A stretch of 64,000 nucleotides of DNA. Source: a virus. Under the pieces are notes generated by a model, which saw only the letters and a program-made list of their open reading frames with translations, searched no databases and was not told the DNA's origin. The DNA lies in IMG/VR virus record IMGVR_UViG_3300033552_000002, positions 1 through 64,000 of that record; one strand, 5' to 3'. Each line of letters starts with the position of its first letter. The stretch's first letter is position 1. The translations under genes and the position numbers were made by a program. Shown here in pieces: positions 8,591 to 31,143 of this stretch.

Positions 8591-8627
8591 CTATATGTGT
8601 GTTATAACTATAATAAAAAATATAAAT

Positions 8628-8813: not shown

Positions 8814-8824
8814 TACACATACAT

Positions 8825-9036: not shown

Positions 9037-9039
9037 ACT

Positions 9040-13777: not shown

Positions 13778-16700
13778 TTATTTACAATTAAATGGGTCCA
13801 TTTCTTCTTCAGGCAAATTTACTTCATTTTCAGTAACTTCAGATACATTATCTTCCCTTTTTACTTCTCTACTAGTATCTGCAGCACTTAAAGCCTGTTC
13901 ATTAGCATTAGCTTTTTCCATTTCATACTGAGAACTCATGTCCATCATAGCTAAATATTCTATTTCCATTCTATTATTAGCCTCTTGCTGTACAAAGTTA
14001 AAAGAACTCATAACAGCTTCTTTAGCAATAGTATTATCTTTAAGACCTGGATATATAGCTTCTAAAACATCTAAAATATTTTTCTTAATTCTTTCCCATA
14101 TTGATTCTCCAGACTGTCTGTATTCTACTTTATTCATCTCTTCTTGAAACATAAAAGAAGTAAGTGATACAGTGATAAATTCTTGAATACTAACACCAGC
14201 ATAAATTAATTCTCTTTCTCTATTGGTATATTCCTTGGATCCAAATGAGTCTTTACCACCCTTCATTTTAATATCTAGATTACTGATTTCATTTTTAAAT
14301 TTATTTCTAAAGTGATTAAAAGACAATACTAAATTAGTTACATGGGCAGGTATAGTAACACCTTTCTTTAGAGTAATTCCATCAGTTTCAAAATATTGAA
14401 AAACTTCATTAACACTTAAAGTATGTATAAGTTCATGTATAAATACTAGAGCAGTTCTATCTTTAGATACATCAGTAGTATAAATTGGATTAAGATTAAT
14501 ATCTAAACTTACTCTAAAAGCCTCTCCTTCATTGTTTATGCCAGGTGTCATTCTAAGTTTAGAAGTTTCTCTTTTATCTATGTCACCTTTTTTAACCAGT
14601 GGAAGTAACCATTTAGCAGCTTCTATTAAATGAGTATATTCTGAGCTTAAATCAGCATTAGAAATCTGAGTTAGTAAATCTGTATAGCTAGTGTTTTCAT
14701 CAATAACAAAAGCATCATTTTGACCTAAAAATGCATCAGATTCAGGTAATTTAGCTACTACAGGTAAAACAGTGGTATTAATCCCCACTACATTTTCATT
14801 TTTCCATTCATACTCAGCTACACCTTTATTACCTAAAACATCTATCTTATGATACAAACTATTTCCAGCATGCTCATACAGACCATATCTATCTAAATCT
14901 CCTTTTCTACCTTTAATTGATATAAAAGCAGGACTCTTTCCTTCTTTATTTAAGTAGTTAAATGTGTTTCCTTGCTCATTTTTTTTATCTTTATAAGATG
15001 CTTTAGGAGCCTTATCTGGATTATGTTGGAAATACTGTCTAGTAAAAGTACTGGTGGTATCTTCTTTCATTCCCAAAGCCACTTCAAAGATATTATTACC
15101 TTCTCTAATCTTTTGTAGCTTAGAACTAAAGAATTGAAGTTTTCTGTTAGCTGGCACAAATTTATTATCTGGGCCTTCATACATACCTACACTTTCTAAA
15201 TACTCTACAGGAACAAATTTTACAAATTCAGTAGCTTTTTGAATACCACCTTGTAAGTAAGCATAACTTGCTAAATCCTGAGCTAGTAACCTAGTAGAAT
15301 ATGGTTGCCCATTTCTATCAGGTAAAACTTCATCATCAATTATTAAGTTTGGAATAGAATTGTACAAATCTTCTTCATCAAGATTATCAGTAACTGTATT
15401 GTTATACTTAATTAATGAAAGTTCATTTTCAGTCACACCAGTTTCATAGCTGAAAGTTTTAATTAATGGATTTTGATTAATACTTTTAACTGCTCTTCTA
15501 TATGTTTTATCAGTGTTTCTTAATGTATTTTTCAAGTAAGTAGAAAGTGATGTGTTATCATCAGTATCTTTAAATAACTCAAATCTCTTGGCCTTAGGGT
15601 CAATATTAAAAATGTTGTTTTCTTTTCTTGAGTAAACATATTTTTTAATGTTTTCAACTATATCTTCAAAATTCTCAATAACAACTGAATCAGAAGCTTC
15701 TTGTTTACCTTGTACAGCCAGTATTTCCTTAACTACATTTATTATAGCAGGGTCTTGGTAAGGAAAAAAATCTTGATAAATAGTATTACCTAAATTAAAT
15801 CCATTAATTACAATTTGGCCTTGAGGTGTGTTAGCTGTTACATAGTAATCACCTATCCAGACACCATCAGTTTTATCTCCTTGTTCAGTAGCAAAATCAC
15901 CTAATAATACAGCTACATTACCTATAACTTTATTCTTTGGTAAAACTTTTAATGCTTCATACTTTAACTGAGATTCAATCATAGATTTACCTAAACTATT
16001 AGCATTAATAGTTTTCTGAACTGTAGAAAGAGCCCTAGCTTGTTTTTCAAGAGATATATATAAGTCTAGTGCAAGTAATTGAATTGCATCATCTTTTCCA
16101 TTAAATTCTATACCATCAAGTAAAGCTTTACCGTCTAAAGCAGAAAAAGAAATTGTTTTAACTAAGTCTCCACTTGCATCTACAGTACTTACTACCCCTG
16201 TACCTAGTTTAAAAACATTCTTAGAATCAGCTCCGTACTTCTTTGTTAGTTCATCAATTAATGCTTCTTCTTTTAAAAAAGTGCCCAATATACCTTTACT
16301 ATCTTTTTTCCTTTTATTAAATTCTTTGATAATAGGTTGAGACAATAACATGTAAGGAATAGAATTTCCATTTTCATCTTTATCAAATCCAAGTAATGTC
16401 AAGTAAGCATCTACATTAATAGTGGCATCATTAACACCTACTCTACCAAGTACTTGCTCTTTTTCATTATCTGTAGCAGTATTTTCTTTTTCAGCAAATA
16501 CATCAGCAATACTTCTTTGGTATTTTTTCCATGTAGCATAACCTCCTATAGGAGAAAGTGTCGTACTCATACCTAAAGTACCATCAGAGTTGAATTTACC
16601 TATATTAATTTCAGCTGGATTACCCTCTTCATCTTGAATATAAACATCTTCTCCTGTATTTTGTTGAAGTAAACCATTGAAAGTAGTATAGTTAGCATAT

Positions 16701-19700
16701 ACTCCAATTGCTACTTTACCAATACTTCCCAAGTCCATTTTACTTTTTTGGTAACTTCCAGTTAGTAATGTAAAGTTTAATTGTTTTTCATCATATAATG
16801 TTCCAGCTTGCTCAGGTGTTAGACCTGTGTTTTTTGCATCATTAATTTCAGCATTTCTCTTACCTTCTTCATTTAATTTTTCAATAATATTGGCTTGATC
16901 TTTAGCAAAATCAATAGACAAAATCTTATTGGTTTTCTTTTGAATTTCATTGTTAGTACTATTAAATACAGCTAAGTGACTTTTAATAAACTCATTTTCA
17001 GCTAGTTTTATTTCTAAATCTAATGTAAGTTTACTAAGTTTTTGTGCTGGCTCCAATTGAGGTAACATTAAAGTCTCTAAAGATTCTTCATCTAACATAT
17101 TACCAAAAGAGTTCTCATTTATAAATTGTGTAAACAATTCATTAAAGGCATTAGATTTAGAAGAAATATAGGTATTCTCTCTGTTAAATTCAGCAATCTT
17201 ATCTTTTAGTTTCTGAGTAATTTCATTAACACTTTCTTGAGTTAATGGAACTATTTGACCTGCTTCATTAACATAATGATTAAGTTGATAAGCAGATTCT
17301 TTGTCAATATCATAATCAAGACCTTTTTGTTTAGTAAAGTTTTTAGGTACTATCATTAAATCTCCTACTTCTGGAGGTAATATACCAGCAATCTCTACAC
17401 TTGAGCCAGATACGTGAGAAGATGTAGGAGTTCTAAATGTAAACATATTCATAAGTTCAGGAGAAATAGCTCCTTCTTTTAGTCCTAATGTACCATTATC
17501 TCTTCTGTAAATATATTTACCTTCTTTAGTAGTTTCACTAAATCCTTCAAATAAGTTTATAAGCTGCTTATTAGCATCTTTAAATTTAGATGGTACAAAT
17601 ATCTGATTTTTACTTAATACTGTCTTACCATCCTCTGTTGTAGTTGTGTGAGCACCTTGAAGTTCTTTACCATTCCAATTGTCAAGGTAAATAATTCTAG
17701 ACTTTTCAATTCCTTCTAACTCTGACTTAAATTTAAATCCACTTTCAGAACCTGCTATAAATCCATTACCAGGCATTTTGTGTTTCATTAATCTATTAGT
17801 GATAATAGAATTTAGTAATGATTCATATCTGTTGCTATCAGAAGATAACCATAATGGAGTTTTAAATTCATAGTAAAATCCAGCCTTAGACTCTAATTGC
17901 TCTATAGTAAGACCTGCTAAAGATTTTATACTGTAGCCTCTAGAAGATGCTTCTTTATATAAAAGTTCTTGTAAGCTAACCATGAAAGTATTCTGGTTAA
18001 CTATTTTACCATCAGGTGCTAAACCTAATTCTAAGAATAGGCCAGCTTTTTTATTCTGTACTATAGTAGTAAAAGATTTGTTGTAGTGATTATACAGCTC
18101 TTTACCTGTAACCATTTCACCATTTAAAGGAAAATGAGCAAATTTATCTCTGTTCTCTTCTGTATAATTTTCAACTACTCCATCTCCAAATAACAATTTA
18201 AAGAATTGAGTACCCATAGATACTTTGTCATCTTGTTTTTTATCAGACTTAAAAGGTACATCCTGTTGAATTCTAAAATTATCTCTTTTAAGTACTAATA
18301 CTCTAGAATCAGATTCATCATTTAATGCAGTATTACTATCAATAGAATCTAAGCTTACTAGTGAATTTACATCAAAAGGATTGATAGTATTTACAGTACT
18401 ACCTACTTTGTTAGCTGTCTGATAAGAAGCTCTAGTAAATCTACCAGTTCTATTTTCCAATCTTTCCATACTGAGTCTAAGTTCATTTAATCTATTTCCT
18501 GCAGTAAGCTGAGGAATTAAAGGAAATGAAGAAGATTTAATATAAACTACTCTGTTAACATCTTGTTTTTTATTAATGTAGGTTCCTGTATGTACAGGTT
18601 TAATAGGTTGGAAAACTAATTCCAATTCTTCTTTAGTTAAATAACCATCTGCAGTAGGATTTCCATTGTTATCTACACTTAATAATTTAGTAGAAATCAA
18701 TTTAAATTCTTCATCAGAAATTCTACCATACCTATGTAACACTGAAATATGTTCTGTAGCTGTAGAATATTCTTGAGCATCAGTAGATTCAATATCAAAG
18801 TAAGCATCTAAGTCAGGATAATTTGTAGCTAAAGTTTTTCTTAAGGAAGCTAAAAGATTTTTGACATTATTATATCTTTCAGGATTTAATCTTAAGATAC
18901 CTTCTTCATGTTTATCTAGTAAAGCTACAGCTTTTGTATACTTATTTAGTAAAGGTTCAGCTTCTTTCATGGCAGTTTCACCATAAAAATTACCAATTAA
19001 ATACTTTGCATTCTCAGTAATATCAATAGAATCTTCTAGGAAAATTTGATTATACTGCTCATTGTAAGAATCAGCAATTTTATTTCCTGGAGCTATTAAT
19101 AAAGCTAATCTTTTACCTAAGTTAACTCCAATTTCCTTGTTTATAGAAATATAGGTAGAGGCTTTTGTGATCTCAGAAGGAGATATTTTTTTACCATCTT
19201 CTTTATAGTTTTTATCTTTACTGTACAAGGCTACATCTCCAGCAAATACTTTAAATATTTCTGAATTAAACAATAGTCCATTAAGAACAAAATCATAAAT
19301 ACCTAATTCATAATCATTGGCTGGATTTTTACCTACTTCAGTAAAATAGTTGCTGTCAAATATATTTGAAATTACTTTACCATTAGAATTAGTTTCTGTG
19401 TAAGGGGCCCATAAAGCTTTTTTATGTTCTACTTCATTTTTAACTACACTCTCAAGAGCATTTACAAATGTATCTTTATATTTTTCTAGTACTTCTTCTA
19501 GAGAAAATTCTAAATCTTGGTTAGCTATTTTAGCTAATATGTTAGTACCATCTTCATCCTTCAAGGTATTCATTATAGGAAGTAAGTGAAACAATTGTGC
19601 TCCATTATCATAATCCTTAATGTTAGTTGCTTTAATTTCTCTATGAAATTTTACTATTCTTTCTAATTCTGGAAGAACTAATTTATCAAAAAGTAATTCT

Positions 19701-22700
19701 TTTATATTTGCTCCAATACTTGTAATCTCACCTTCTGCAGTTTTTTCAAAAAGTAAATTACCTTTACTCATAAAATCAAAGACAGCAGTAGTCATAAACA
19801 TACCTGTACTTTTATCAGACATAGTAGGTATTAGCATGTTAGCCATTCTTACAGCTATTCCAGATATTACTGATCCATCAGGAAGCTTAGTAATCTTTCT
19901 ATCAGTAAAACCAGTCATACTAGCTATATCATAATCAATTTCACCTAAGTCAGTTATACCTGCTTTAAGTGGAGTGTCACCTTTTTCTTTGACAGCTGTA
20001 AGACTTAAATGAGCTATCTCAAATAAGTTTTTAAAAGTTGGCTCATTCTGTAACATTTCAAGTATGATAGAGCTCTTAGAGAATGATAATGATTGTAAGT
20101 CTTCAATTAGTGTATCATTGTCATCAGTTACACTTCTTTTTAAACTTGACACCATATCAGTAATATACTTAGTTGGCACTAATGTAGAAATGTTTTTACC
20201 TGAATCTCTAAAAGATAGAGCAACAAGATTTGGATTGTACTTAGCTTCAATTAGTGTTAAAGCTTTCATTACATTATTAAGTTCAGAAAATATAGTTTTA
20301 CCACTATCTAAACCTTTTTCAATTGGGCTTTCAATACCTTCCTTTAAGAATTTATAAATAGGTACAAAAAGACCTCCAGCATCTTGTGTAAATAATTCTT
20401 GAAAAACATATTGCTTTTGAGAATTATAAACACCTTCATTATATAACTCTTCCCAAGCACTATCTTCTAATGTAATACCTATCTTCTCTAACCAATTTTT
20501 TAAATCAGCTTGAGGTACATTAAGGTAATCATTATTAGAAGCTTCTCTCAAATTTTCAAGAGTTGTAGTCATTTCAGTTGCAAAAACTTTGTTAATACTA
20601 CCATCTTTGTTGTAAAGACCTGAACTTCTATTATCATTTTTCCACTTCTTATCTATAATTCTAGTGGCTTCATTAGAGTTAGTATTATAAATTTTTAATG
20701 TAATACCATTTGAACCTTTTTCATACATAGCAAATTTAGATACAAGAGTGTGTCTAACAAAATTAGAAACAAATTCATTCTTAATTTGTTCATCTGCAGA
20801 ATCTAGTTTAGTTAAAATTTCTCCAACAAAAGAAGATGCCCCATGCTTCACATACATTGGATTTAACTTAAGTTTTTCTATAATTTTATTGTAGTCTGAA
20901 ACTACCTCACTTCCCATAGCTAAAATTTTGCTTAACTCATTGTACACATCATTAAATGACATATAAACAGGTAAACCTAGATAGCCAGTTTCTTTGTTGT
21001 TTGCATTATCATATCTATTAATTTTATGTAAAAATCTTCTAAGTCTGTATGATGCTTTAGCTTTACCAGACTCTTCAATAGAATCTTTGTTGTAATCTTT
21101 TACAGTAAGACTAACATCATCTGTATCTTGATCTTCACTTAAATCTTCTTTAAGTACATTATCTATAGTTTCTTCTTTAATTTCATTCTTTCTAACTACA
21201 GTTAGTTTAGTTTGTAATTGAATATCCTTGAAAGCTTTATCATAAATTTCTTTATAATTAGCTTTAATATCTACAATGTTAGTAATTGTTGCAGCATAAG
21301 CATCACTTATAGCTTTATTCATAGGTAAAGAACTGTCAGAAGAGTTTGTAACTTCAGCTAACATTGCTACCATATCACTATTCAGTTTGTTTAAAACTAA
21401 ATTTAATTCTGATCTGATTTCTTCTTTAATCTTAGTTTCAGAGATTTTAAATTTATATTCAAAACTAACCTTCTCTCCAATACTATGTAAAATAAATTGT
21501 CTTATAGTTTTTTCTTGTAGGATATTAAGGTTACCAACTACTTTAAAAATATTTTCAAGCTTACTAGTGTCAGCAATCATGGCATCACTTTGATCAAAAT
21601 CTAAAGCATCTACACCTATATTTCTTAAAAAGTCAATGTGTTTTTGAGCATTTAAAGGAGTATTTTTAGCTTCATTTTCTTGATACATTTTTTCCAATGC
21701 AGCATTAACAGCTTTCATCCTGGCCTCTTCAGAAGTCATAGTAGCTACAGGTGCAGGTAAAACTTCTTGGCCTACTACTTCTGTATAAGATATATTAACA
21801 ATAGGTTGTATAGCAGTAGCATATACAGGGTCTAAATCTGTACCAACATTAAAAGATTTTACATTAGTTAATAAAGTTTGTTTTAGATAATCCTCATAGT
21901 TCATATTTTGAGATTCTACATTACCCTTACTAATATGAATCATGTTTTTAGTTTTACCTAAAGACTTCATGTTAGTATGTTGAGATACCAAATCCAGTAT
22001 ATTTTCTGAATTAAAAAGAATTTCTCTGTATTTATTCAAAGAACCTTGTTTAGGCATATTCTTACCTTGAAAATATAACTTAATAAAAGTCTCTATATTA
22101 TCAGTATTCTCAATGTCAAATCCAGTTTGATTATAAATATCTTGCTGTAATTGTTTAGCTTGAGCTAACTCTAATCCAAATTTCTTTTTGGTATCTCTTG
22201 AAATACCTTTTAACTTGATATTTGTAGCATCTGCTATAGTTAAGTGAGCAGAAAGGGCCCATTGAGCTGTTTCAATTTGGATAGCAGTAACTTGTCTACC
22301 TACTTCTAAAGCTCTATAGGTAGGAACAATTTCTCCTTTATCATTTTTCTCAAAACCTATTCTGTTTACATACCAAGTGTGACCATCTTTATTATTTCCT
22401 TCATCATCAGTTAAATCAAACTTACCTGCTTCACCTGCCCTGTTTTTATTTAGTAAAACTCCTTTATTAAAAGCTTGAGCAAAAGTTGAGTGTAAGTTTA
22501 CACCCCTTTGTACTACAATAAAAGATTGTGGATTTGATTCAGTTATTGAAATCTTAGGCAACTCTTCTGGAATTTTATGAAATACACCATCAGAAATCTT
22601 ATTAACAGTAACTTCTCTAAGACCTTTGTTAATATTATTTCTAAGATTTCTGGTATTATCTATACCTTTCTTAATATGATTTAACCAGTCTTTTGAAGCC

Positions 22701-25700
22701 AAATCAGGATTATCTGATGGCCCATAAGGATTACCTACATTATAAGGATTATACCAATCTGTATCTTGTACATAGGCTAATCTCTTACCTTTACTGTCAG
22801 TATAGAATATAGGATATTTATCTGTAAATTCTTGAGTCCTTCTAAAATTTGGATTTGCAATTTCTCTTTGTTCAACCCATTCTTTAAAAGAAATTTTTCC
22901 AAGTGCACCTAATGTATTTCTACCATTGGAAACTTGAATACTTCCCCATAAAGTTTCATCTGCAATTTCAATTTGAAACTTAGAGTCTGGCCCAAACTTG
23001 TCTGGATTAAGAATATCTCTAGGGTCTATATAAGAGTTCTCAGATAAATTTAAACTATTGCCTACAGTTTCTCTAGTTACAACTCCATTGACATTCACAT
23101 CAACATAAGGTAAGGCTAAAAATGCAGCTTTAGGTAGTATGTTTAATGTTCTAGTACTATCAATAAGTTGTACATCAGATTTAACTAATGGCATATTTTC
23201 TTCATCATAACCTATTACAGTTGTCTGCTTTTTAGCTACTTCTATTTGAGCTTTTTCTGTAGCTTCTTCATGTTGAACATAAGTACTTACAGTTCCTGTA
23301 GTTACAGTCTTTGTAAATATATTCATAATGTCATTTGCAAAATCAGAAAAAATACCTTTTTCAGGACTGAATAATTCATCATAAACAGATTGATAATCTG
23401 CTGTAGGATAGTTATTTGATTCCCAACCTTTAACCATATAGCTAAAGATTTGTTTCATTTTCTCCTTATCATCAGTAAACTTATAATAAGTATGCATAAA
23501 TTCCCTAAAAGTAGGGTTCTTACCCATTACTTCAGAGATTCTATCATAGGTTCTTTTAGCAGAAGCTTTAAGAGCAGCAAGTTGCTCAGGAGTATATTCA
23601 GTTTCAGAACCAATTTGAGAGTCAAATTCTGGGTCTTCTACAAAACTACCTACAGGAATTGTTTTTGGAGTTTCTTCTGGAGTACCAAATATATCAAATA
23701 AAGATATAGTGTCTTCAGTTTCAACAACTAATTGTTCTATAAATTCATTTTCAGCAACATCATCATATACTTCAATTGGAGCACTTTCACTAACTATTCC
23801 ATCACCATTTTCTATAGCTACCTCACTTGCAATTTTTCTTTGCTCTAGCAAATAATTTAAAGTGGCTTGGTCTTTTTCTTCCTTTTGCTGTAATTTTTTA
23901 CTAGCTAATTCTTCTTTTTTAACTGCAGCTAATTCATCAAAAACATTGGCTTTAATAGTTCCTCCAGAATTATTTTTAAGTTCCATTACAAACTGATCTA
24001 CCATTTCTGGAGTTTGTTGTAAGTCATTTTCAGAATTATTAAGAACTCTTTCACCTTCAATCTCAGCAACTAGAGCATCATATTGTCTAGAAACTTCTTT
24101 TCTTTCAGCTACATTTTCAGCATATTTAGGATTGATTTGCTCATTATACATTTTCATTGTATTATTCTGAGAATCCTGTATAGCACCTTTAGTCATTAAT
24201 AATGAAGTAAAAGTTTTAACTGGAGCCATACCTTCTTTTTCTAGACCATCTAAGAAATTATGGTAAATATCTTGCTCTACTGCATTATCAAATTGTCTAG
24301 ACAATAAAGTTTCCATAGAATAGTCAACAGTTATTCCTTCTCTTTGAATAAAAGCATCTATCTCTTCTTTAGCTTTATCTCTTGTAGTATCAAGGTCTTT
24401 ATCTATCTGAATTACAGCTTGTTTGTTAGCTAATTTTCTTTCAGCTAGACTAAATATTTCAGGAAAATTATCCTTTTCAGAATGTTCATCATAAACATTT
24501 TTTAATTCTTGAATTCTGCCTTTAGCTAATTGAAGATTTAATTTTGTTTCAGAACTAATATCTGGTTTAGATTGAAGTTTTTCTAATGTTTCTTCAAAGT
24601 TTTTAATTGTACCTGTTCTAATAGCTTGTCCAGCTAGGTTTACAAATTTCTTTTGTTCCAGTGTATTAGCAAGACCAGTTTTACCAGCTTCTTTTAATTG
24701 ATGTATAGCATAGTCATATTCAGAAGGATTGTATAAAGTTCCTCCTGTATTCATCATAATATGTTTGGCTAAGTCTGCATCATTCATTGAAGCATCTAAG
24801 CCTTTATATAATCTTTTAATATCATTCTTGTCTAACCTATAGTTATTAGCTCTAGCAGCCATTCCTGCACCTGCAAAACCACCTCCCATTATTAAAGTTT
24901 GAGCAATTACATCTATGTAAAAGTCAGGATTTGTAAGTTCTTCTAATTGTTGTTGATAATCTTGTTTATAAGTTGGCATGAACTGGTTCCATACTTCTTC
25001 TGCAACCTCTCCAGGAAGACCATTAATTAAACTTGCTCTACCTGTATGAGCAATAGCTTCTCCAGATAATTTACCTAAAGCAGCATTGTTTACAAGATTT
25101 TTAGTTTTATTATATCCTTTAACAACTGCATTAACTCCTTTACCTACTAAACTTTGAGATGCTTTTTCCCCTACATTTGCTATTCCTTTTACAATTTTAC
25201 CTCCTAAGTTGGTTCTTTCTACAGCACTTAATACTCTCCTAGTAGCCATATTATTAAATACACCTGGCAATGCTTCACCTACATACTTTTCAGAGAAATT
25301 TTCTTTAACAGATTCACTGAATCCATACCATAAAGATTCTCCTGTAGTATGAGATTTAGGTACAAGCATGTCAAACTCTTTCTTTAAGCCTGCAATTTGT
25401 GAAGTTAAAGTTTCAAGTTCACTTTTCTCCCCACCATTAAGATTTTGTTTTTTAGATAAAAGTTCTTGACGAGATGTAAGCATCTCAGTCTTTTTATCAA
25501 ATTCATCTTTATATTTATTATATCTACTTTCTCCAATTAATACTTTTTCAGTACCATCTTTACCTTTAATAATTTCAGCTTGACCTAAATTATCTTTAGC
25601 AAATTGTTGATACATCATAGGGGTTGCAACAGCTCCAGCACTTAAACTAGCTGCTCCACCTGCTGCTCTAGCAAGTACAGTAGACATTAAAGCTTTTTTA

Positions 25701-26926
25701 CCACCTTGCTTGGCAATTTCTTTTAGTGAGTTTTCAAAAGCACCTTTAACAAAAAATTCAGCTACACCTTTTTCAATTCCACCAGTTAAAGGACCTGCAG
25801 ATATCATACCTTGCATCATTACAAGTGATTGTCCTACTCCTTTACCCCAACCATATCCAGTTTGTCCTCTATCTAATCTAAGAGATTCTACTTCTTGTTT
25901 AGAAGCATAAGACATAAGAAGTGCTTCATCTCCTGATGATAATTTTTCAGTAGGTATATAGCCTATTACATTTTCATTTTCTCTTTTTTCTTTTTCTATT
26001 CTATCACTTTTATTCTTAGCTGCAACAGTAACAAGACCTCCATACATAGAGTTTACACCTATAGTTGCTAAATCTTTCTTCTGAGTACCAAGACCACTCC
26101 AAAAGTTTAAATCTCCAGATAGATAATCTTCCATCTGAGTAATACTTTCATTATAATTACTTTCTGCAATAGAATGTTTGTCTCCTTCAAAAGTTGTCAT
26201 AGGTCCAGAAGAAGGTTCCATTCCCATTCCTATTTGAGTATTTATAGGAATCTGTTCAGAAGCTCTTTTATCTGCAGAAATTTTTCTTTTTCTTTGAGTT
26301 TCAATAATATGTTGTTCAACAATAGGAGCTAAGTCTCTCTTTTCAATAGAGCTTCTTTTTTCAAATTCTTTATTTTGCTCTTTACTAAGACCAGTAAAAG
26401 GTTTATTTTCTATACTTTTGCTAATAGCGCCTACAAAAAGAGAAGCTTTAACTGAATCAGGTAAAGGATTAAACACACTGTTCATTACATCAGTGGCAGT
26501 ATTTTTTATCTTACCCCAAACAGTACTATCTTGTAATTCATTAAGTCTTGCACTATTATCAATAAGTTTAATTGTTTCATCATCAGCATTTTCTTCACCA
26601 AATTTCTTTGCTTGAGCTTCTTTTACTTTAGACCAAACTTCACTCTTATCTATAGTATTTACCTTATTCTGTTTCTCCATTTCTTTAGAAGATGCAGAAT
26701 TTTTAAAATCTCTAGCTTGTTTTTCATCAGATGATAGAGTCATCATATCTAATGCTTCAACAGAAAGATTACCTAACCCCATATTAGTAGAAGCTAATTC
26801 TTCTTGTGATATAGTGTTTTTAGGTATTGCAGTATTTTGCATTACTGCTGAAGAAAATTTAGCTTCTTTTTCTTTAATACTATTTTTTAAGAAATCTGCA
26901 GCTGTACTTTTTTTAGGTTGAAGCAT
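13778..26926 (-). CDS. giant virion-associated RNA polymerase-like polyprotein (4382 aa) with C-terminal zincin motif
   Basis: Uninterrupted 13.1-kb ORF. GLDYDIDKE (DYDID, nt 17303-17317, residues 3204-3208) matches the DxDxD metal loop of crAss-like virion RNAPs and QDE-1-type two-barrel polymerases. HELIH (nt 14423-14437, residues 4164-4168) is a zincin HExxH motif. Position among the large tail-proximal genes is as in crAss-like phages. Confidence 0.65.
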   Translation of the reverse strand: MLQPKKSTAADFLKNSIKEKEAKFSSAVMQNTAIPKNTISQEELASTNMGLGNLSVEALDMMTLSSDEKQARDFKNSASSKEMEKQNKVNTIDKSEVWSKVKEAQAKKFGEENADDETIKLIDNSARLNELQDSTVWGKIKNTATDVMNSVFNPLPDSVKASLFVGAISKSIENKPFTGLSKEQNKEFEKRSSIEKRDLAPIVEQHIIETQRKRKISADKRASEQIPINTQIGMGMEPSSGPMTTFEGDKHSIAESNYNESITQMEDYLSGDLNFWSGLGTQKKDLATIGVNSMYGGLVTVAAKNKSDRIEKEKRENENVIGYIPTEKLSSGDEALLMSYASKQEVESLRLDRGQTGYGWGKGVGQSLVMMQGMISAGPLTGGIEKGVAEFFVKGAFENSLKEIAKQGGKKALMSTVLARAAGGAASLSAGAVATPMMYQQFAKDNLGQAEIIKGKDGTEKVLIGESRYNKYKDEFDKKTEMLTSRQELLSKKQNLNGGEKSELETLTSQIAGLKKEFDMLVPKSHTTGESLWYGFSESVKENFSEKYVGEALPGVFNNMATRRVLSAVERTNLGGKIVKGIANVGEKASQSLVGKGVNAVVKGYNKTKNLVNNAALGKLSGEAIAHTGRASLINGLPGEVAEEVWNQFMPTYKQDYQQQLEELTNPDFYIDVIAQTLIMGGGFAGAGMAARANNYRLDKNDIKRLYKGLDASMNDADLAKHIMMNTGGTLYNPSEYDYAIHQLKEAGKTGLANTLEQKKFVNLAGQAIRTGTIKNFEETLEKLQSKPDISSETKLNLQLAKGRIQELKNVYDEHSEKDNFPEIFSLAERKLANKQAVIQIDKDLDTTRDKAKEEIDAFIQREGITVDYSMETLLSRQFDNAVEQDIYHNFLDGLEKEGMAPVKTFTSLLMTKGAIQDSQNNTMKMYNEQINPKYAENVAERKEVSRQYDALVAEIEGERVLNNSENDLQQTPEMVDQFVMELKNNSGGTIKANVFDELAAVKKEELASKKLQQKEEKDQATLNYLLEQRKIASEVAIENGDGIVSESAPIEVYDDVAENEFIEQLVVETEDTISLFDIFGTPEETPKTIPVGSFVEDPEFDSQIGSETEYTPEQLAALKASAKRTYDRISEVMGKNPTFREFMHTYYKFTDDKEKMKQIFSYMVKGWESNNYPTADYQSVYDELFSPEKGIFSDFANDIMNIFTKTVTTGTVSTYVQHEEATEKAQIEVAKKQTTVIGYDEENMPLVKSDVQLIDSTRTLNILPKAAFLALPYVDVNVNGVVTRETVGNSLNLSENSYIDPRDILNPDKFGPDSKFQIEIADETLWGSIQVSNGRNTLGALGKISFKEWVEQREIANPNFRRTQEFTDKYPIFYTDSKGKRLAYVQDTDWYNPYNVGNPYGPSDNPDLASKDWLNHIKKGIDNTRNLRNNINKGLREVTVNKISDGVFHKIPEELPKISITESNPQSFIVVQRGVNLHSTFAQAFNKGVLLNKNRAGEAGKFDLTDDEGNNKDGHTWYVNRIGFEKNDKGEIVPTYRALEVGRQVTAIQIETAQWALSAHLTIADATNIKLKGISRDTKKKFGLELAQAKQLQQDIYNQTGFDIENTDNIETFIKLYFQGKNMPKQGSLNKYREILFNSENILDLVSQHTNMKSLGKTKNMIHISKGNVESQNMNYEDYLKQTLLTNVKSFNVGTDLDPVYATAIQPIVNISYTEVVGQEVLPAPVATMTSEEARMKAVNAALEKMYQENEAKNTPLNAQKHIDFLRNIGVDALDFDQSDAMIADTSKLENIFKVVGNLNILQEKTIRQFILHSIGEKVSFEYKFKISETKIKEEIRSELNLVLNKLNSDMVAMLAEVTNSSDSSLPMNKAISDAYAATITNIVDIKANYKEIYDKAFKDIQLQTKLTVVRKNEIKEETIDNVLKEDLSEDQDTDDVSLTVKDYNKDSIEESGKAKASYRLRRFLHKINRYDNANNKETGYLGLPVYMSFNDVYNELSKILAMGSEVVSDYNKIIEKLKLNPMYVKHGASSFVGEILTKLDSADEQIKNEFVSNFVRHTLVSKFAMYEKGSNGITLKIYNTNSNEATRIIDKKWKNDNRSSGLYNKDGSINKVFATEMTTTLENLREASNNDYLNVPQADLKNWLEKIGITLEDSAWEELYNEGVYNSQKQYVFQELFTQDAGGLFVPIYKFLKEGIESPIEKGLDSGKTIFSELNNVMKALTLIEAKYNPNLVALSFRDSGKNISTLVPTKYITDMVSSLKRSVTDDNDTLIEDLQSLSFSKSSIILEMLQNEPTFKNLFEIAHLSLTAVKEKGDTPLKAGITDLGEIDYDIASMTGFTDRKITKLPDGSVISGIAVRMANMLIPTMSDKSTGMFMTTAVFDFMSKGNLLFEKTAEGEITSIGANIKELLFDKLVLPELERIVKFHREIKATNIKDYDNGAQLFHLLPIMNTLKDEDGTNILAKIANQDLEFSLEEVLEKYKDTFVNALESVVKNEVEHKKALWAPYTETNSNGKVISNIFDSNYFTEVGKNPANDYELGIYDFVLNGLLFNSEIFKVFAGDVALYSKDKNYKEDGKKISPSEITKASTYISINKEIGVNLGKRLALLIAPGNKIADSYNEQYNQIFLEDSIDITENAKYLIGNFYGETAMKEAEPLLNKYTKAVALLDKHEEGILRLNPERYNNVKNLLASLRKTLATNYPDLDAYFDIESTDAQEYSTATEHISVLHRYGRISDEEFKLISTKLLSVDNNGNPTADGYLTKEELELVFQPIKPVHTGTYINKKQDVNRVVYIKSSSFPLIPQLTAGNRLNELRLSMERLENRTGRFTRASYQTANKVGSTVNTINPFDVNSLVSLDSIDSNTALNDESDSRVLVLKRDNFRIQQDVPFKSDKKQDDKVSMGTQFFKLLFGDGVVENYTEENRDKFAHFPLNGEMVTGKELYNHYNKSFTTIVQNKKAGLFLELGLAPDGKIVNQNTFMVSLQELLYKEASSRGYSIKSLAGLTIEQLESKAGFYYEFKTPLWLSSDSNRYESLLNSIITNRLMKHKMPGNGFIAGSESGFKFKSELEGIEKSRIIYLDNWNGKELQGAHTTTTEDGKTVLSKNQIFVPSKFKDANKQLINLFEGFSETTKEGKYIYRRDNGTLGLKEGAISPELMNMFTFRTPTSSHVSGSSVEIAGILPPEVGDLMIVPKNFTKQKGLDYDIDKESAYQLNHYVNEAGQIVPLTQESVNEITQKLKDKIAEFNRENTYISSKSNAFNELFTQFINENSFGNMLDEESLETLMLPQLEPAQKLSKLTLDLEIKLAENEFIKSHLAVFNSTNNEIQKKTNKILSIDFAKDQANIIEKLNEEGKRNAEINDAKNTGLTPEQAGTLYDEKQLNFTLLTGSYQKSKMDLGSIGKVAIGVYANYTTFNGLLQQNTGEDVYIQDEEGNPAEINIGKFNSDGTLGMSTTLSPIGGYATWKKYQRSIADVFAEKENTATDNEKEQVLGRVGVNDATINVDAYLTLLGFDKDENGNSIPYMLLSQPIIKEFNKRKKDSKGILGTFLKEEALIDELTKKYGADSKNVFKLGTGVVSTVDASGDLVKTISFSALDGKALLDGIEFNGKDDAIQLLALDLYISLEKQARALSTVQKTINANSLGKSMIESQLKYEALKVLPKNKVIGNVAVLLGDFATEQGDKTDGVWIGDYYVTANTPQGQIVINGFNLGNTIYQDFFPYQDPAIINVVKEILAVQGKQEASDSVVIENFEDIVENIKKYVYSRKENNIFNIDPKAKRFELFKDTDDNTSLSTYLKNTLRNTDKTYRRAVKSINQNPLIKTFSYETGVTENELSLIKYNNTVTDNLDEEDLYNSIPNLIIDDEVLPDRNGQPYSTRLLAQDLASYAYLQGGIQKATEFVKFVPVEYLESVGMYEGPDNKFVPANRKLQFFSSKLQKIREGNNIFEVALGMKEDTTSTFTRQYFQHNPDKAPKASYKDKKNEQGNTFNYLNKEGKSPAFISIKGRKGDLDRYGLYEHAGNSLYHKIDVLGNKGVAEYEWKNENVVGINTTVLPVVAKLPESDAFLGQNDAFVIDENTSYTDLLTQISNADLSSEYTHLIEAAKWLLPLVKKGDIDKRETSKLRMTPGINNEGEAFRVSLDINLNPIYTTDVSKDRTALVFIHELIHTLSVNEVFQYFETDGITLKKGVTIPAHVTNLVLSFNHFRNKFKNEISNLDIKMKGGKDSFGSKEYTNRERELIYAGVSIQEFITVSLTSFMFQEEMNKVEYRQSGESIWERIKKNILDVLEAIYPGLKDNTIAKEAVMSSFNFVQQEANNRMEIEYLAMMDMSSQYEMEKANANEQALSAADTSREVKREDNVSEVTENEVNLPEEEMDPFNCK

Positions 26927-26958: not shown

Positions 26959-29145
26959 TTACTCTTCTGCTGAATATACTATTTGATGAATTCTTTTTAT
27001 TTCTTTTTCAGTTTTGTATTCAACTCTAGAACCATCAGCATGTACTATAAAAGCCCTACCTTTATCAGTCATAAAGCTTTCACCATTTCCAACATCTTTA
27101 ACTCTTTTAGCTAATGTACTAATATTAGTATGTGACATATCTCTGTTAAAAGCTCTTTCAGACATATTAGTATTTAAGAATGTATTTAAAGTTGGTACAT
27201 TAAGCTGATTAGTAGACATCAATACAGGTAATCTACTATTACCCATTTGCACATGCATAACTAAATTACTATCCCCATCATTAGCTAATGACATATCTAA
27301 TCCAATAGTTTTTTCATCTATAACAAAGCCTGCTTCTTTACCATTTTTTCTAGTTGTATACTTCTTGTTTCCATTTGCATCTACTCCAGATGTCATTAAC
27401 CCTTCTTTTTCTAGAAGTCCAAAACTTAACCTTCCTCCAGGAGCTGTTTTGTAAATAACTCTTTTACTACTTTTAACACCATCACTATCACTTTCTCCAT
27501 CAAACCATTTTGTTTTCTTAGCACCTGTAACTGAGTTAACAATAAGACTTGTCCCTGCTCTTTTATCATTCTGAGGTACATAAACAATAGTGTTACCTTT
27601 GGCATCATCAAACTCTAGAGTGGAACCTTTAACAGTCTGATCAATATTAAAATATGCATCATCAAAAAATTGTCCAGCTGCACCTTGAATTTCTTTTATA
27701 GTTGCAGTAGACATACCAGTTTCATTAAAAGAAACTACATTGTCCATAACATTATTTTTGTTCTTGGTTTCACCTAAGAACTTATTGTAAACATTTTTAA
27801 TTAAAGGATTATTTAACCATCCAGGTTTACTTGTATCTAAGTTTTTTAGAGTTGAATTTTTTAAATAATCTTTAAATCCTTGGGCCTGAGCAGATAAGAA
27901 ATTCTTTTTAGTTAATTGAGATTTATAATCACTTGATAATTTATAAGCACTATCTTCAGATAAACCTGCAGCTACCATAGCTTGCACATTTCCTTGTTTT
28001 ATTAATTTTTCTGTTTCACTTCCAGGTTTAACTTTTAATTGTTTAATTTGACTTTGTAAAGCATTCTGACTATTTGTTAATCCTTGATTAACTAAACCTA
28101 AAGCTTTTTGAAAATTATCAGCTGAGTTACTAGCTACTTGATATACATGACCATAAGTAGTATTAATGTGTTCTGGAATTAGTTTAGCAGCAGCTGCATC
28201 TTCTCTTTGATAATCTTTGTTTTTAAAGTAACCTGCATCATTACCTATAGTATTAGAATCTTTAGTTACTCCTCTAGCATAAGTACTGATACCAGCATTT
28301 ATTTTGTTACCATAATAATCATTTCTAAAACCTTTGAATTGCTTTTTACCATCTTTGTCAGTATTAAATTCATATAACTGAGATAAATCAGCATTTTCAA
28401 ATCCAGCTATACCTAAATTTCTTCTTTCATTTACAGCTGCTTGTAAATTAGGATTTGCTTGTATGTAATCAACATAAGCTTGAGCTACTCTTTCTTTAGA
28501 AACTCCTTGATAAGAACCTTGCTTAGTATAGGTATAACCATTTCCACCATTAGTTTCTTTGGTTACATCATATCCACTATCTTTCATGTGTTGAGCAAAA
28601 CCTTCATCAAATACTAAACCTTTGTAATCCCCAGTAATACTAGGACTTTGCCCAGCTGTACCAGTATTATTGTTCCAACCAATTCCTGTATATTTAGCTA
28701 AGATTTCTTTTTTCCTAGCTGCTTTATAAGCTGCATCATATCCATCTTTTTCTGACAATTTATCTATAACATCATACTCTTCAGCAACTTGTTTTCTATA
28801 CTTTTGCATAGTACCAATTTCACCTGTACTCCAATCAGCCCCAATATCTCTACCAAGTTTAGTAATATCTCCTTGATACTTACTATACTCCATAGGATTA
28901 GCTTGAATATTAGAAACAATGCCACTAATATTTTGTTCATAAGCTTTGATCTTTTCTTGTAGTCTTGGAGTATCTTGTGTTAAAGCTTCTGCTTTAAGTT
29001 TATCTAAAAAAGATACTGCACTAGATATAGTATCATCAACTGCTTTCTCTTTGTTCATTAGAACATTAGACATTAATTCAGCAGGAGCTTCATACATTTT
29101 ATTATCTATGAAGTGTGGTTGCGAAGTTTCATAAAATCTACCCAT
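26959..29145 (-). CDS. large virion protein (728 aa), function unknown
   Basis: Long ORF packed within 3 nt of the neighbouring large genes. No motif recognised. Confidence 0.55.
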   Translation of the reverse strand: MGRFYETSQPHFIDNKMYEAPAELMSNVLMNKEKAVDDTISSAVSFLDKLKAEALTQDTPRLQEKIKAYEQNISGIVSNIQANPMEYSKYQGDITKLGRDIGADWSTGEIGTMQKYRKQVAEEYDVIDKLSEKDGYDAAYKAARKKEILAKYTGIGWNNNTGTAGQSPSITGDYKGLVFDEGFAQHMKDSGYDVTKETNGGNGYTYTKQGSYQGVSKERVAQAYVDYIQANPNLQAAVNERRNLGIAGFENADLSQLYEFNTDKDGKKQFKGFRNDYYGNKINAGISTYARGVTKDSNTIGNDAGYFKNKDYQREDAAAAKLIPEHINTTYGHVYQVASNSADNFQKALGLVNQGLTNSQNALQSQIKQLKVKPGSETEKLIKQGNVQAMVAAGLSEDSAYKLSSDYKSQLTKKNFLSAQAQGFKDYLKNSTLKNLDTSKPGWLNNPLIKNVYNKFLGETKNKNNVMDNVVSFNETGMSTATIKEIQGAAGQFFDDAYFNIDQTVKGSTLEFDDAKGNTIVYVPQNDKRAGTSLIVNSVTGAKKTKWFDGESDSDGVKSSKRVIYKTAPGGRLSFGLLEKEGLMTSGVDANGNKKYTTRKNGKEAGFVIDEKTIGLDMSLANDGDSNLVMHVQMGNSRLPVLMSTNQLNVPTLNTFLNTNMSERAFNRDMSHTNISTLAKRVKDVGNGESFMTDKGRAFIVHADGSRVEYKTEKEIKRIHQIVYSAEE

Positions 29146-29148
29146 TTC

Positions 29149-31143
29149 TTATTTAGTTTTCTTGTTAACAGATATAATTTTATTATTCTTATCAAACTTA
29201 AAGTACTTGCTCATTTGATTTACCATGTCCATCATGGTTTTATTTTGAGCAACTTGATTTAAATCTTTACCAGTTTGTTGCAAACCTAAACCTATAGTGG
29301 CTTTATCTAATCCTAACTGAGTAGCAAAAGCATCTTTATCTTGTCTGTTGGCTAAATCTGCATCTGCAGCTCCCCCCATTTTAATTTGATCTATATTAGC
29401 TTTTAATGAAGTTTCTTGACCTAACATTGCCATCATTTGCTTAGCATATTGATCAGATAAATTTGCATTGGCATCATTAGCTGCAATGTCTGCAGATAAA
29501 TCTGTTGCTCTTATGGTGTTAATACTACTTGCACTATTTCTAGATTGTTTCTTTGCTGTATTAACTCCTCTAGTTACTCTTTGTAAGTTATTGTCATTCT
29601 CAGCTGTTAAAGTATTTTTAGCACCTTGTAAAGATTCTAATGCATCCTGGCCATAGTCTTCAAACTGATTAACATTAGGTGTATCAGAAGCTCTGTTGTT
29701 AAGTGTATTGTTCATAGGTGCAAACATAGAAACTGCATTTCCAAGTAGACCTGTAACATCCCCTGTAGTAAAATTTAAGCCTGATGTCAAAGGGTCATTA
29801 TTTCCTGTTTGTTCTGCAAAATTAGTGTCATAAACTTCAGCTGAAACTTCTTCAGAAATTACTGGATTATAACTTAATAAATTATCTTGAATTTCTTCTC
29901 CAAAATTATTCAAAAAAGTTTTAGGGTTATAGTTATCTACACCAGTTGGAGGAGTTCCTAAAGCATATTCTACACCTTGCTTACCTGTTCCCATAGCAAA
30001 TTCTTGCATCTGAGTAAACTGAGTAGCTATTTCTTGCATTTGCAAATCTCCCTGATCTTCATTCTCTATAGCAGCTTTCATTCTTTGATGTGAATTGGCT
30101 ATAGCTTTATCTCCTTTACTTGTAGCAAGAAGTTCATCTAACTTAAGTGTTCTTCTTTCTCTAGACTTTTTTCTATCTGCCATAGTCTTACCATCAGCTC
30201 CTTTAAGTTGATCAGAATATATCTTAGTACCTTCTGGAACATTCATATCAATTCCTCCTTGAGTATGCTTTGGCCCCTTTAATTCTGCAGGTTCACCTCC
30301 TGGAGCTTCTACAATTTCACCACCTTCAGCTTCAATTTGACCTTCAGCATCATCCATACCCATAGCAGCATAACCTTTTTGAAACATAGCTGCTTGAGAA
30401 GGATTCATTACTTGAAAATTAGAATTAGTTAAAAAAGTACCTTCTCCTGAACCTTGTATATCTTTAGAGGTTAAATTTTTTGCAGTACTTGCAGGTAAAT
30501 TTTGAGCAATAGAAGAACCAATTTGTCCTGCCATTTGCATTCCCATAGCTAAAGGATTATCAAAAGCATCAGCTTCTGCTTTAGCCATCAATAACTGATT
30601 GTCAATTAAAGCTTGATTTGGAGTTTGCATATAGTTCTTAACAGTTACTCCACTAGCACCTGTACCTACACCATACTTTCTTACTATCTTTTTCATACTA
30701 GGTTCATTTATAATACCCTTTCCAAGGGTAAATTGTGAAGTGTTATCCATTCCTGTAAAACCATTAACTAAAGCCTTAAGCTTATCTTTTTGTTTTGCAA
30801 TTTTACCAACTCCTCCAACACTTTTAATTGCAGGAACAAAGTTTAAACTTTCAGCTACAACAGTAGCTATATCTCCTTTAGATAAAGCTTTCCCTCCCTT
30901 AGCAGCTGAGGTAGTGTAAAAGGCTGGATTCAAAATATCTAAAGGTGAATCTAAGATATTCCTCTCTATATTATTAGAATCTATACCTCTTTGTAAATGT
31001 AAAGGAATAGGTTCATTACGAGCAGAATATCCAAAAGCAGTTAAAGGATTACTTAAGAGCTCATAAGCTCTGTCCATGTAATCTTGTTCTTTACTAGCTT
31101 TAACCTCAGATTTATTTTTATAAGCTTTTTTAGGTTGTAACAT
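29149..31143 (-). CDS. large virion protein (664 aa), function unknown
   Basis: Long ORF. Its N-terminus MLQPKK is identical to that of the 4382-aa protein. Gln/Asn/Ala-rich C-terminal half. Confidence 0.55.
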   Translation of the reverse strand: MLQPKKAYKNKSEVKASKEQDYMDRAYELLSNPLTAFGYSARNEPIPLHLQRGIDSNNIERNILDSPLDILNPAFYTTSAAKGGKALSKGDIATVVAESLNFVPAIKSVGGVGKIAKQKDKLKALVNGFTGMDNTSQFTLGKGIINEPSMKKIVRKYGVGTGASGVTVKNYMQTPNQALIDNQLLMAKAEADAFDNPLAMGMQMAGQIGSSIAQNLPASTAKNLTSKDIQGSGEGTFLTNSNFQVMNPSQAAMFQKGYAAMGMDDAEGQIEAEGGEIVEAPGGEPAELKGPKHTQGGIDMNVPEGTKIYSDQLKGADGKTMADRKKSRERRTLKLDELLATSKGDKAIANSHQRMKAAIENEDQGDLQMQEIATQFTQMQEFAMGTGKQGVEYALGTPPTGVDNYNPKTFLNNFGEEIQDNLLSYNPVISEEVSAEVYDTNFAEQTGNNDPLTSGLNFTTGDVTGLLGNAVSMFAPMNNTLNNRASDTPNVNQFEDYGQDALESLQGAKNTLTAENDNNLQRVTRGVNTAKKQSRNSASSINTIRATDLSADIAANDANANLSDQYAKQMMAMLGQETSLKANIDQIKMGGAADADLANRQDKDAFATQLGLDKATIGLGLQQTGKDLNQVAQNKTMMDMVNQMSKYFKFDKNNKIISVNKKTK

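Follow-up and report, generated by a model that had tools for sequence, protein, structure and literature searches.

A giant open reading frame joining a two-barrel RNA polymerase to a zincin-like domain, and paired terminal cysteines at the split points of its relatives

The closest structurally described counterpart of the protein examined here is found in Cellulophaga phage phi14:2, which uses three genes (1797 + 2180 + 1421 amino acids (aa)) for gp67, gp66 and gp65. The activity of its two-barrel virion RNA polymerase (RNAP) gp66 (PDB 6VR4) is abolished by mutation of each Asp of the DxDxD loop, gp65 includes a Zincin-like protease domain with a possible role in activating the RNAP or in digesting peptidoglycan, and in some phages gp65, gp66 and gp67 are fused as one huge polyprotein (Drobysheva et al., bioRxiv 10.1101/2020.03.07.982082). 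The phi14:2 gene records carry tandem mass spectrometry (MS/MS) notes on virion location, and gp47, gp49 and gp50 of crAss001 have been detected in virions by mass spectrometry (PMC10172136). Phage N4 gp50 (3500 aa) is likewise a giant ejected chain with an N-terminal domain, a polymerase and an HExxH zincin-like domain, but its polymerase core is T7-like and not two-barrel; the relation of the crassvirus proteins to the N4 domains was left open by the 2026 N4 paper (PMC13434306). Here we describe a 4,382-aa open reading frame (ORF), the giant ORF, on the minus strand of a 64,000-nucleotide stretch of viral DNA (positions 1 to 64,000 of IMG/VR record IMGVR_UViG_3300033552_000002, hereafter the window), which joins a gp66-type polymerase and a gp65-type zincin-like domain in one chain.

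An earlier note, made from the letters of the window alone, had described an uninterrupted 13.1-kb ORF containing a DYDID and an HELIH motif. This description is confirmed by the ORF listing and the translation: the frame opens with ATG, its sole stop is at the end, GLDYDIDKE and FIHELIHTLS begin at aa 3202 and 4162 with the nucleotide coordinates exactly as given, and DYDID is separated from HELIH by 960 aa. Since the base composition gives P ~1e-178 for 4382 stop-free codons by chance, the ORF is real. The note had further supposed that the product fuses proteins that are separate elsewhere, namely a membrane-active module, an RNAP and a metalloprotease. The RNAP and the zincin parts of that proposal stand; neither a membrane-active module nor homology to gp67 could be demonstrated.

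Polymerase and zincin-like domain within one chain

By themselves, DxDxD and HExxH motifs could be due to chance: against an expectation of 0.97, DxDxD occurs three times, and shuffles contain D[FY]D[IV]D in 1% of cases and HExxH in 3.5%. It is homology and conservation that carry the argument. A tblastn search of GenBank phages with aa 2643–3642 placed 29 Flavobacterium psychrophilum podoviruses first (FpV4, Fpv1-3, FPSV; 62% identity), followed by phi14:2, Bacteroides and uncultured crAss-like phages, and the phi14:2 match falls in the 2,180-aa gene of gp66. By blastp, aa 2706–3237 align to gp66 952–1396 (E 2e-19) and aa 1916–2669 to gp66 199–1034 (the second blastp E-value being 2e-7), with GLDYDIDK set against the catalytic GSDFDIDK of gp66 (DFDID 1361–1365). 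Hidden Markov models (HMMs) of the family gave E 5e-36 for aa 1900–2700 against gp66 224–893 and E 7e-45 for aa 2700–3300 against gp66 952–1457; the polymerase segment HMMs also match crAss001 gp50, which is homologous to aa 1900–3300. D3204, D3206, D3208 and K3209 do not vary in any of three alignments, of 63, 53 and 35 homologues, and R3165, P3167, G3181, Q3393, G3443, D3486 and N3487 are also invariant in the polymerase alignments.

The AlphaFold model of aa 2650–3849 (pLDDT 79, pTM 0.73) has 6vr4_A as its sole significant PDB match in Foldseek (E 2.7e-23, prob 1.0), at the level of the overall fold (TM 0.50 over 1,220 columns); the weak matches that follow are nearly all largest subunits of cellular RNAPs. 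By phmmer, neither the whole protein nor aa 2401–3700 retrieved anything relevant from the PDB, 6VR4 included, and the gp66 link came from blastp against the phi14:2 locus and later from Foldseek. The T7/N4-type polymerase domains (PF21894, PF21769 and related), which Pfam finds in N4 gp50, are absent from the giant ORF. Sequence homology and predicted fold together show aa ~1900–3900 to be a gp66-type two-barrel DNA-dependent RNAP with an intact DxDxD loop. The reading as a crAss-type virion RNAP, which the note had staked on a polymerase fold and on conservation of the motif, is borne out on both points.

The HExxH motif of phi14:2 lies not in gp66 but at residue 245 of gp65, the product of the next gene. 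A word-indexed protein search gave two matches for the C-terminus of the giant ORF and none for its N-terminus, and exhaustive HMMER with a small profile of aa 3900–4382 yielded 128 representatives. Pairwise blast of the C-terminal module against gp65 was not significant (E 3.2). An HMM of 142 sequences (aa 3920–4382) matched gp65 127–257 and 265–407 collinearly (E 8e-11, Z=1e5) and residues 2153–2288 of gp50, the N4 virion RNAP, at E 1.6e-5; against crAss001 proteins the module HMM had no match at E of 1 or below. A 24-sequence profile run against the PDB retrieved the phage internal virion protein 9sfn_G (6e-7), the N4 virion RNAP (1e-4), the PhiM1 ejection protein gp48 (8vb2; 9e-4) and, weakly, minigluzincins. 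The region matched in N4 is subdomain C1 of the C-terminal domain of the virion RNAP (E 1.6e-5, 1.3e-4).

The module is confidently modelled over aa ~4070–4320 (pLDDT ~90), with strands at model residues 225–227, 235–237 and 244–246, a helix at 256–275 that carries HELIH, and E350 (= E4249) within the predicted helix 348–357. A sheet, an HExxH helix and a Glu helix make up the MPTase core described by Iyer et al., who classed the N4 HExxH region as an MPTase (PMC5512222). In the BFVD database, Foldseek matched the model to phi14:2 gp65 (S0A048; E 8e-4, rmsd 5.6 Å over 242 columns), to Fpv-type relatives, T7-gp16-type internal core proteins and crAss ‘ART-PolyVal-like’ proteins, and also to polyvalent-protein domains and an N4-like virion RNAP; the N4 structure itself was not retrieved from the PDB. 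Between the polymerase and this domain, aa 3900–4069 are modelled as strands of pLDDT ~75–88 and a linker (model residues 149–170) of pLDDT <50, and residue 127 of gp65 maps by HMM to about aa 4039.

Profiles and models thus show aa ~3920–4382 to be a zincin-like (MPTase) domain homologous to the gp65 N-terminus, as the note had proposed for its HExxH region, and in phi14:2 this domain belongs to a separate gene product. Judged by the same profile and fold matches, it is of the same MPTase type as the modules of the N4 virion RNAP and the T7-gp16-type core proteins. It shares the sheet, HExxH helix and Glu helix with MPTases, T7-gp16-type core proteins and minigluzincins (selecase, jannalysin), but differs from the named families in that it scores under their curated thresholds, ends a polymerase chain and has its predicted Glu ligand 81 residues downstream. 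HExxH is intact in 114 of 129 family members, 15 having K/E-ExxH, and a Glu 81 residues after HExxH is present in 123 of 124; an active metal site usually shows such near-invariance of the E, the second His and the distal Glu. Given the homology to N4, a related zincin-like module is attached to two polymerase folds that are themselves unrelated, which bears on the question left open for N4 (PMC13434306). The KExxH/EExxH members (12%: P0061, P0071, P0078, P0085, P0086, P0089, P0090, P0095, P0099, P0100, P0107, P0110, P0112, P0122 and P0146) lack the first His yet retain the catalytic Glu, the second His of the motif and the Glu further downstream; in some lineages the module could bind metal differently or serve a purpose other than catalysis.

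Since the zincin is a separate gene product (gp65) in phi14:2, the giant ORF is a fusion. In the 77 retrieved proteins with both motifs, these lie 797–1208 aa apart (median 936), and across the gp66/gp65 boundary of phi14:2 the distance is 1,064 aa; 49 of the 77 proteins are at least 3,800 aa long, and in these 49 the median tail after HExxH is 228 aa (218 in the giant ORF). Full-length relatives occur in 29 F. psychrophilum phage records, RefSeq Crassvirales giants of 4,245–4,645 aa in six genomes, and 54 metagenomic cluster representatives reach at least 3,800 aa. Family protein P0149 (4,600 aa) holds gp67, gp66 and zincin homology in one chain, while in P0118 (6,146 aa) homology runs on through the gp65 tail, to which crAss001 gp49 is also homologous. 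Within the family recovered, polymerase and zincin usually share one chain, at a nearly constant spacing of 800–1200 aa, and the phi14:2 split is one of several variants. The RNAP–zincin architecture is therefore not new, and the giant ORF is a further case of the class reported in the phi14:2 preprint; its value as a gene lies mainly in better annotation, the current names of its Flavobacterium phage orthologues and of several crassvirus giants in RefSeq being ‘structural protein’, ‘hypothetical’ or ‘nuclear pore complex protein-like’. The unusual length, and nothing else, might suggest that an assembly or sequencing artefact falsely fused adjoining genes into a single frame. The chance of this is practically nil: the architecture is uninterrupted in the 29 independently sequenced phage genomes, the six RefSeq Crassvirales and the 54 metagenomic representatives, and the identical protein is present in JGI, ENA and Logan data, including a 95-kb metagenomic contig. 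Conservation across genomes refutes the artefact.

Compared with phi14:2, to which core identity is ~24%, the giant ORF has ~1900 extra residues ahead of the RNAP and zincin, shows no detectable likeness to gp67 or the gp65 tail, and is split from the next protein after the zincin, whereas phi14:2 is split before it. Full-length collinear orthologues are the gp32/gp33-type ‘virion structural proteins’ (4287–4419 aa) of FpV4, Fpv1-3 and FPSV (Fipvunavirus), with 35–39% identity in the N-terminus, 62–67% in the core and 44% in the C-terminus; they have the same neighbours as in the window (muzzle, two small ORFs, giant, ~1590-aa ORF), a single terminal Cys, and a next ORF that begins MAC or MSC. 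Identities of 35–67% make the window phage a distinct species or genus. The RefSeq giants (Suoliviridae cr53_1 gp57 (4645 aa), cr125_1, cr10_1, cr113_1 and cr60_1; Intestiviridae crAss002 gp33 (4245 aa)) belong to the size class of the giant ORF, likewise follow the muzzle and two cargo genes, and have a DFDID-type loop and a terminal Cys followed by an M-x-C partner. The Suoliviridae giants are fused otherwise, with a gp47-like part (own HEAxH at ~1700–2180) joined to the RNAP; cr53_1 and cr125_1, unlike the giant ORF, have the gp65-type zincin (HExxH at 167–205) in the next protein, and the crAss002 RNAP is joined to the downstream part. Under table 11 the giants of cr53_1, cr125_1, cr113_1 and cr60_1 show 40–78 in-frame stops, which fit the stop-codon reassignment of Yutin et al. 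2021 (PMC7886860). For several of these giants the annotation, given as ‘nuclear pore complex protein-like’, ‘DprA-like’ or ‘DNA helicase’, is apparently mistaken.

Cysteines at the ends of the cargo proteins

The sole cysteine of the 4382-aa protein is its penultimate residue, C4381, which faces Cys3 of the 1578-aa ORF downstream. A Cys lies within the last 8 residues in all 96 family proteins with a 150–700-aa tail after HExxH, at a Cys frequency of 0.08% in these proteins, and 38 of the 54 giants have exactly one Cys. Nearly devoid of cysteine, the RNAP-associated cargo proteins have theirs at the chain ends that face a split point: upstream proteins end ...C(x0-10) and downstream proteins start M-x(1-3)-C. 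Of 16 junctions in 12 genomes or contigs, 15 show such paired termini, and four different split points are represented. An N-terminal Cys is always absent from the protein that opens the chain, as is a C-terminal Cys from the one that closes it. Among 88 other ORFs of the same loci, whose Cys content is 11-fold higher than that of the chain proteins, a Cys is found in the last 11 residues of five and in the first 5 residues of two.

In phi14:2, gp67 ends ...TIC (its only Cys), gp66 reads MAC...ECK (its only two) and gp65 starts MSC... (its only Cys); FpV4 gp32 ends ...NCN and gp33 starts MAC.... The crAss001 proteins are encoded by three genes on two strands, unlike the single giant ORF, and have the same Cys polarity (gp47 ...RCNS, gp50 MSKRC...ICGANTLYEL, gp49 MAKKC...), as do those of cr128_1 (gp051 ...IACLAI, gp053 MNNC...SICGATNLLS, gp052 MSRNC...). 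Single junctions follow the rule in cr53_1 (gp57 ...KKECK, gp56 MQC...), cr125_1 (gp021 ...KKECE, gp020 MQC...), cr113_1 (gp38 ...KFICNL, gp37 MYKC...) and cr60_1 (gp27 ...KKHCKKS, gp26 MTC...). The fourth split point is inside the polymerase, where ten metagenomic N-terminal halves have one Cys each, in the last 1–6 residues, and the matching C-terminal halves start MACQYFVNG. On contig L015 (metagenomic, crass-like, JGI 3300011339), P0017 ends ...KKCE and is followed by a ferritin-like gene and then by a MACEYFVGG protein with DFDVD at 269; the gene between the split RNAP halves encodes a 162-aa ferritin/rubrerythrin-like protein (L015:13264-13752). A motif in the nucleotide sequence of the junctions was rejected as an explanation, as partners lie on opposite strands in crAss001 and cr128_1 and the ferritin-like gene intervenes in L015. 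N4 gp50, gp51 and gp52, unlike the giant ORF, have no cysteine at all.

From this pattern we propose, tentatively and with slightly less than an even chance of being right, that the RNAP-associated cargo would form one covalent thread in the virion, in which cuts at four or more places in the coding sequence are compensated by a head-to-tail disulfide or equivalent Cys–Cys link that is released on reduction in the host cytoplasm. If true, this would be a redox equivalent of polyprotein processing, and the thread would be ejected as a single string. The paired cysteines offer a concrete and cheaply testable idea of how several cargo proteins of ~150–500 kDa may be ordered and released, and the cultured phages phi14:2, crAss001 and FpV4 are suitable for the test.

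Several points tell against a disulfide thread. Because the genomes share ancestry, the 16 junctions do not count as wholly separate cases. At one junction of L015, between a 1,890-aa N-terminal protein (g3) and P0017, there is a Cys on neither side and no orphan Cys; this is the sole unpaired junction among the 16. The Cys of cr10_1 gp32 stands 11 residues from the end, ahead of a next ORF that starts MKIIC..., and crAss002 (gp32 ...SFVCS, gp33 MSC...) fits only if gp33 starts at Met33. Phage assembly, moreover, takes place in the reducing cytoplasm. The annotated start of crAss002 gp33 (L007:11794-24531), which follows a 170-nt gap, is probably 32 codons early; Met33 gives MSCTPSN and would match the M-x-C of homologous chain members.

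The terminal cysteines might instead not form inter-protein disulfides but bind metal, either as a cysteine switch on the zincin or in a shared Zn site, or act as a signal for packaging or ejection that another virion protein recognises; we regard this as unlikely. C4381 is ~217 aa after HExxH, behind a flexible acidic tail able to fold back, and in the zymogens of minigluzincins, which are the nearest folds in the PDB (4jix, 4jiu), the C-terminal tail keeps the enzyme blocked. The pair, however, also flanks splits far from the zincin (gp67|gp66, and P0017|g6 inside the polymerase), for which reason a cysteine switch was rejected as a general explanation, and the strict polarity, together with the lack of both cysteines at g3|P0017, is more easily explained by pairwise partners than by a generic signal.

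The pairing of terminal cysteines at split points is apparently an unreported feature. The crAss001 atlas describes structural disulfides in the tail and never mentions cargo-protein cysteines (PMC10172136), the phi14:2 preprint mentions no cysteines and purified gp66 in DTT (bioRxiv 10.1101/2020.03.07.982082), and a search of one literature library found no report of paired terminal cysteines in RNAP-associated cargo proteins. In cr128_1, whose cargo has the terminal-Cys pattern, gp059 (L012:8867-9112) bears the annotation ‘thiol-disulfide isomerase and thioredoxin’; its product might help to make or resolve Cys links, or serve ribonucleotide reduction alone.

Proposed mechanism and the role of the zincin-like domain

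We consider it likely that the giant ORF is the Fpv-type version of the Crassvirales RNAP-associated cargo protein and works in the following way. By extension from phi14:2, crAss001 and N4, the protein would be packaged in the capsid, threaded through the tail ahead of the DNA, N-to-C and partly unfolded, and would refold in the host cell to transcribe early genes. The zincin-like domain would either process or activate the chain or, in the manner of the N4 C-terminal domain, serve in regulation or encapsidation. As the cysteine pattern suggests, the RNAP-associated proteins would behave as one continuous thread; where this is encoded by several genes, the pieces would be joined head-to-tail, the C-terminal Cys of one to the M-x-C Cys of the following one, and the simplest such link would be a disulfide, open to reduction once in the cytoplasm. 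In the window, C4381 would pair with Cys3 of the 1578-aa ORF.

The following observations weigh against this assignment. Packaging, polymerase activity and peptidase activity are extrapolated to the window phage from homologues. Residues 3300–3920 have no HMM match to gp66, homology there being indicated by the fold match alone, and family HMMs find no homology of aa 1–1900 to gp67, crAss001 gp47/gp49 or the N4 N-terminal domain. The zincin domain is under every Pfam gathering threshold: SprT-like reaches 17.4 against 25.6 bits and is matched weakly by 15 of 24 members, all sub-threshold (best E 1.9e-5). The PDB matches of its model in Foldseek, selecase and jannalysin, have probabilities of 0.8–0.99 but E-values of 0.09 or higher. 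Finally, catalysis may not be universal, given that 12% of members have K/E-ExxH.

What the zincin-like domain does can be read in three ways. In the phi14:2 preprint self-processing was proposed for fused homologues, and the note raised it for the giant ORF: either inside the capsid or once the chain has been ejected, the zincin would divide the 4382 aa into a gp67-like part, an RNAP and a protease, and thereby activate the polymerase. Consistent with this, the crystal form of gp66 is auto-inhibited by a cleft-blocking domain (bioRxiv 10.1101/2020.03.07.982082), MPTases are predicted to autoprocess polyvalent proteins, P1 DdrB being processed (PMC5512222), and the catalytic residues are kept in 88% of the family. 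The N4 virion RNAP, which has a homologous domain, is by contrast reportedly packaged unprocessed (PMC5512222), the first His is lost in 12% of members, and no cleavage-site motif was detected at the borders between modules. The zincin is, moreover, equally conserved in phi14:2, where the three proteins are already separate, so that cutting fused junctions cannot be its sole role. The terminal-Cys pairing points to selection to keep the pieces connected, and suggests that connection, not cleavage, is what is conserved. On balance we hold self-processing to be rather unlikely.

A domain that cleaves nothing but, like N4 C1, docks on, modulates or auto-inhibits the polymerase or aids packaging is a somewhat doubtful alternative. 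The profile link to N4 gp50 2153–2288 argues for it, as do reports of allosteric regulation of the N4 RNAP through binding of its C-terminal domain (PMC13434306) and of a need for the N4 MPTase region in encapsidation (PMC5512222), and K/E-ExxH variants are tolerated. Against this, hardly any member departs from the Glu of HExxH, its second His or the distal Glu, and the N4 link is short and motif-centred (26.6 bits), with no N4 structure among the Foldseek PDB matches. Digestion of peptidoglycan cross-links or of a host protein during or after ejection, which the phi14:2 preprint suggested for gp65 (bioRxiv 10.1101/2020.03.07.982082), appears distinctly improbable. The fold is shared with T7-gp16-type internal core proteins, some of which have lytic transglycosylase domains, and no peptidoglycan hydrolase is known among N4 ejection proteins (PMC13434306); set against this, Pfam and PDB comparisons show no likeness to the peptidoglycan peptidase families M15 and M23, and, in a chain that presumably leaves with its N-terminus ahead, a zincin placed at or close to the C-terminus would be among the last parts out.

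The N-terminal modules and the genomic setting

The first 1900 residues are conserved within the family, as judged from sequence profiles, and comprise two modules (Table 1). A local HMM of aa 1–1050 (N1) recovers 31 giant clusters, and this module may have a role in ejection or packaging. The HMM of the second module (N2; 79 sequences) gives strong matches to P0118, P0139 and P0146. Equivalence to gp67 is positional alone: phmmer and blastp of aa 1–1900 against gp67 were negative and hhalign gave a probability of 21%, and identity of the N-terminus with gp67 was rejected as unproven, despite a look-alike ‘EGxxEE...Gly-rich helix’ in the gp67–P0149 alignment; P0149 itself is a true gp67–gp66 fusion. 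The Gly/Ala-rich stretches quoted in the earlier note, AAGGAASLSAGAVATP at aa 421 and GGFAGAGMAARA at aa 682, are present at conserved positions. The word ‘hydrophobic’ applies to them only weakly, as the 19-residue Kyte–Doolittle maximum is 1.39 (aa 673–691), below the usual transmembrane range. A Pfam candidate there, LPD14 (PF18827), scores E 6e-4 and 20.2 bits, under the 27-bit cutoff, and LPD14 is absent by Pfam from gp67, gp47, gp49, gp50 and N4 gp50. A membrane-active or LPD14 module was dropped on these three grounds, and a ‘membrane-active’ N-terminus is conjecture.

Table 1 Features of the giant ORF and its neighbours in the window
Feature	Position (nt)	Strand	Residues and basis
Giant ORF, probable virion RNAP-associated cargo protein	13778..26926	-	N-terminal modules + two-barrel RNAP + zincin-like domain + Cys-ended tail
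N1 module, giant subgroup only	23777..26926	-	aa 1-1050; 35-39% identity to FpV phages
Conserved region ‘lPxExxEE...QTLxMGG..G’ with Gly-rich GGFAGAGMAARA	24836..25210	-	aa 573-697
N2 module, start of widely conserved core	21227..23629	-	aa 1100-1900
Two-barrel (QDE-1/gp66-type) DNA-dependent RNA polymerase	15227..21229	-	aa ~1900-3900; blastp, HMMs, fold match
DYDID catalytic Mg-binding loop	17303..17317	-	aa 3204-3208; aligned to gp66 1361-1365
Beta-rich subdomain and low-confidence linker	14720..15229	-	aa 3900-4069; where phi14:2 splits gp66 from gp65
Zincin-like (MPTase / minigluzincin-like) domain	13937..14719	-	aa 4070-4330
HELIH, predicted zinc-binding and catalytic motif	14423..14437	-	aa 4164-4168
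E4249, candidate third zinc ligand, NIxEF helix	14180..14182	-	Glu in 123/124 members
Variable acidic tail	13781..13936	-	aa 4331-4382; pLDDT <50, variable in alignment
C4381, sole Cys of the 4382-aa protein, penultimate residue	13784..13786	-	translation
Downstream ORF, 1578 aa	9040..13776	-	begins 1 nt past giant ORF stop; M-S-C start
Cys3 of the 1578-aa ORF (M-S-C)	13768-13770	-	faces C4381
Two upstream ORFs, 728 + 664 aa, no Cys	26959..31143	-	position of crassvirus cargo proteins C1, C2
Crassvirus muzzle protein, 1890 aa	31152..36824	-	Pfam PF25731 crAss_MUZ, E 1.9e-38, 132.8 bits

The window has a G+C content of ~30%, and from 9040 onward almost every gene is on the minus strand. The giant ORF matches PHROG 16227 ‘virion structural protein’ (profile of 4401 positions; match from aa 1095), and the order muzzle, 664-aa ORF, 728-aa ORF, giant ORF is the canonical crassvirus position when compared with crAss001. 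The placement of the 728- and 664-aa ORFs as C1 and C2 follows from gene order against crAss001 gp45 and gp46 alone, their PHROGs being of unknown function. We infer that the 1578-aa ORF, whose FpV4 orthologue gp33 starts MAC, continues the cargo chain as its following member, at the place that the gp65 tail and crAss001 gp49 occupy elsewhere. That it is the gp65 tail was dropped, as jackhmmer showed no homology in either direction: from the gp65-tail side it matched only gp65, P0137 and crAss001 gp49, and from the 1578-aa side FpV4 gp33.

Three further features of the locus stand apart. MLQPKK starts both the giant ORF (MLQPKKSTAA, 26909-26926) and the 664-aa ORF (MLQPKKAYKN, 31126-31143), both on the minus strand, and the first cargo-position proteins of other crassviruses have short basic N-termini too (MAKKKIKRRG, MKKKINKKN, MKKINKRKK); judging from these residues, the shared basic N-termini could be a common packaging or ejection signal. 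The muzzle protein has 15 Cys, compared with Cys-free cargo genes beside its gene. At ~8045-9040, the border between a plus-strand block (94-8045) and the minus-strand virion block, the coding strand flips and the GC skew changes sign, the cumulative skew reaching its maximum near 8 kb.

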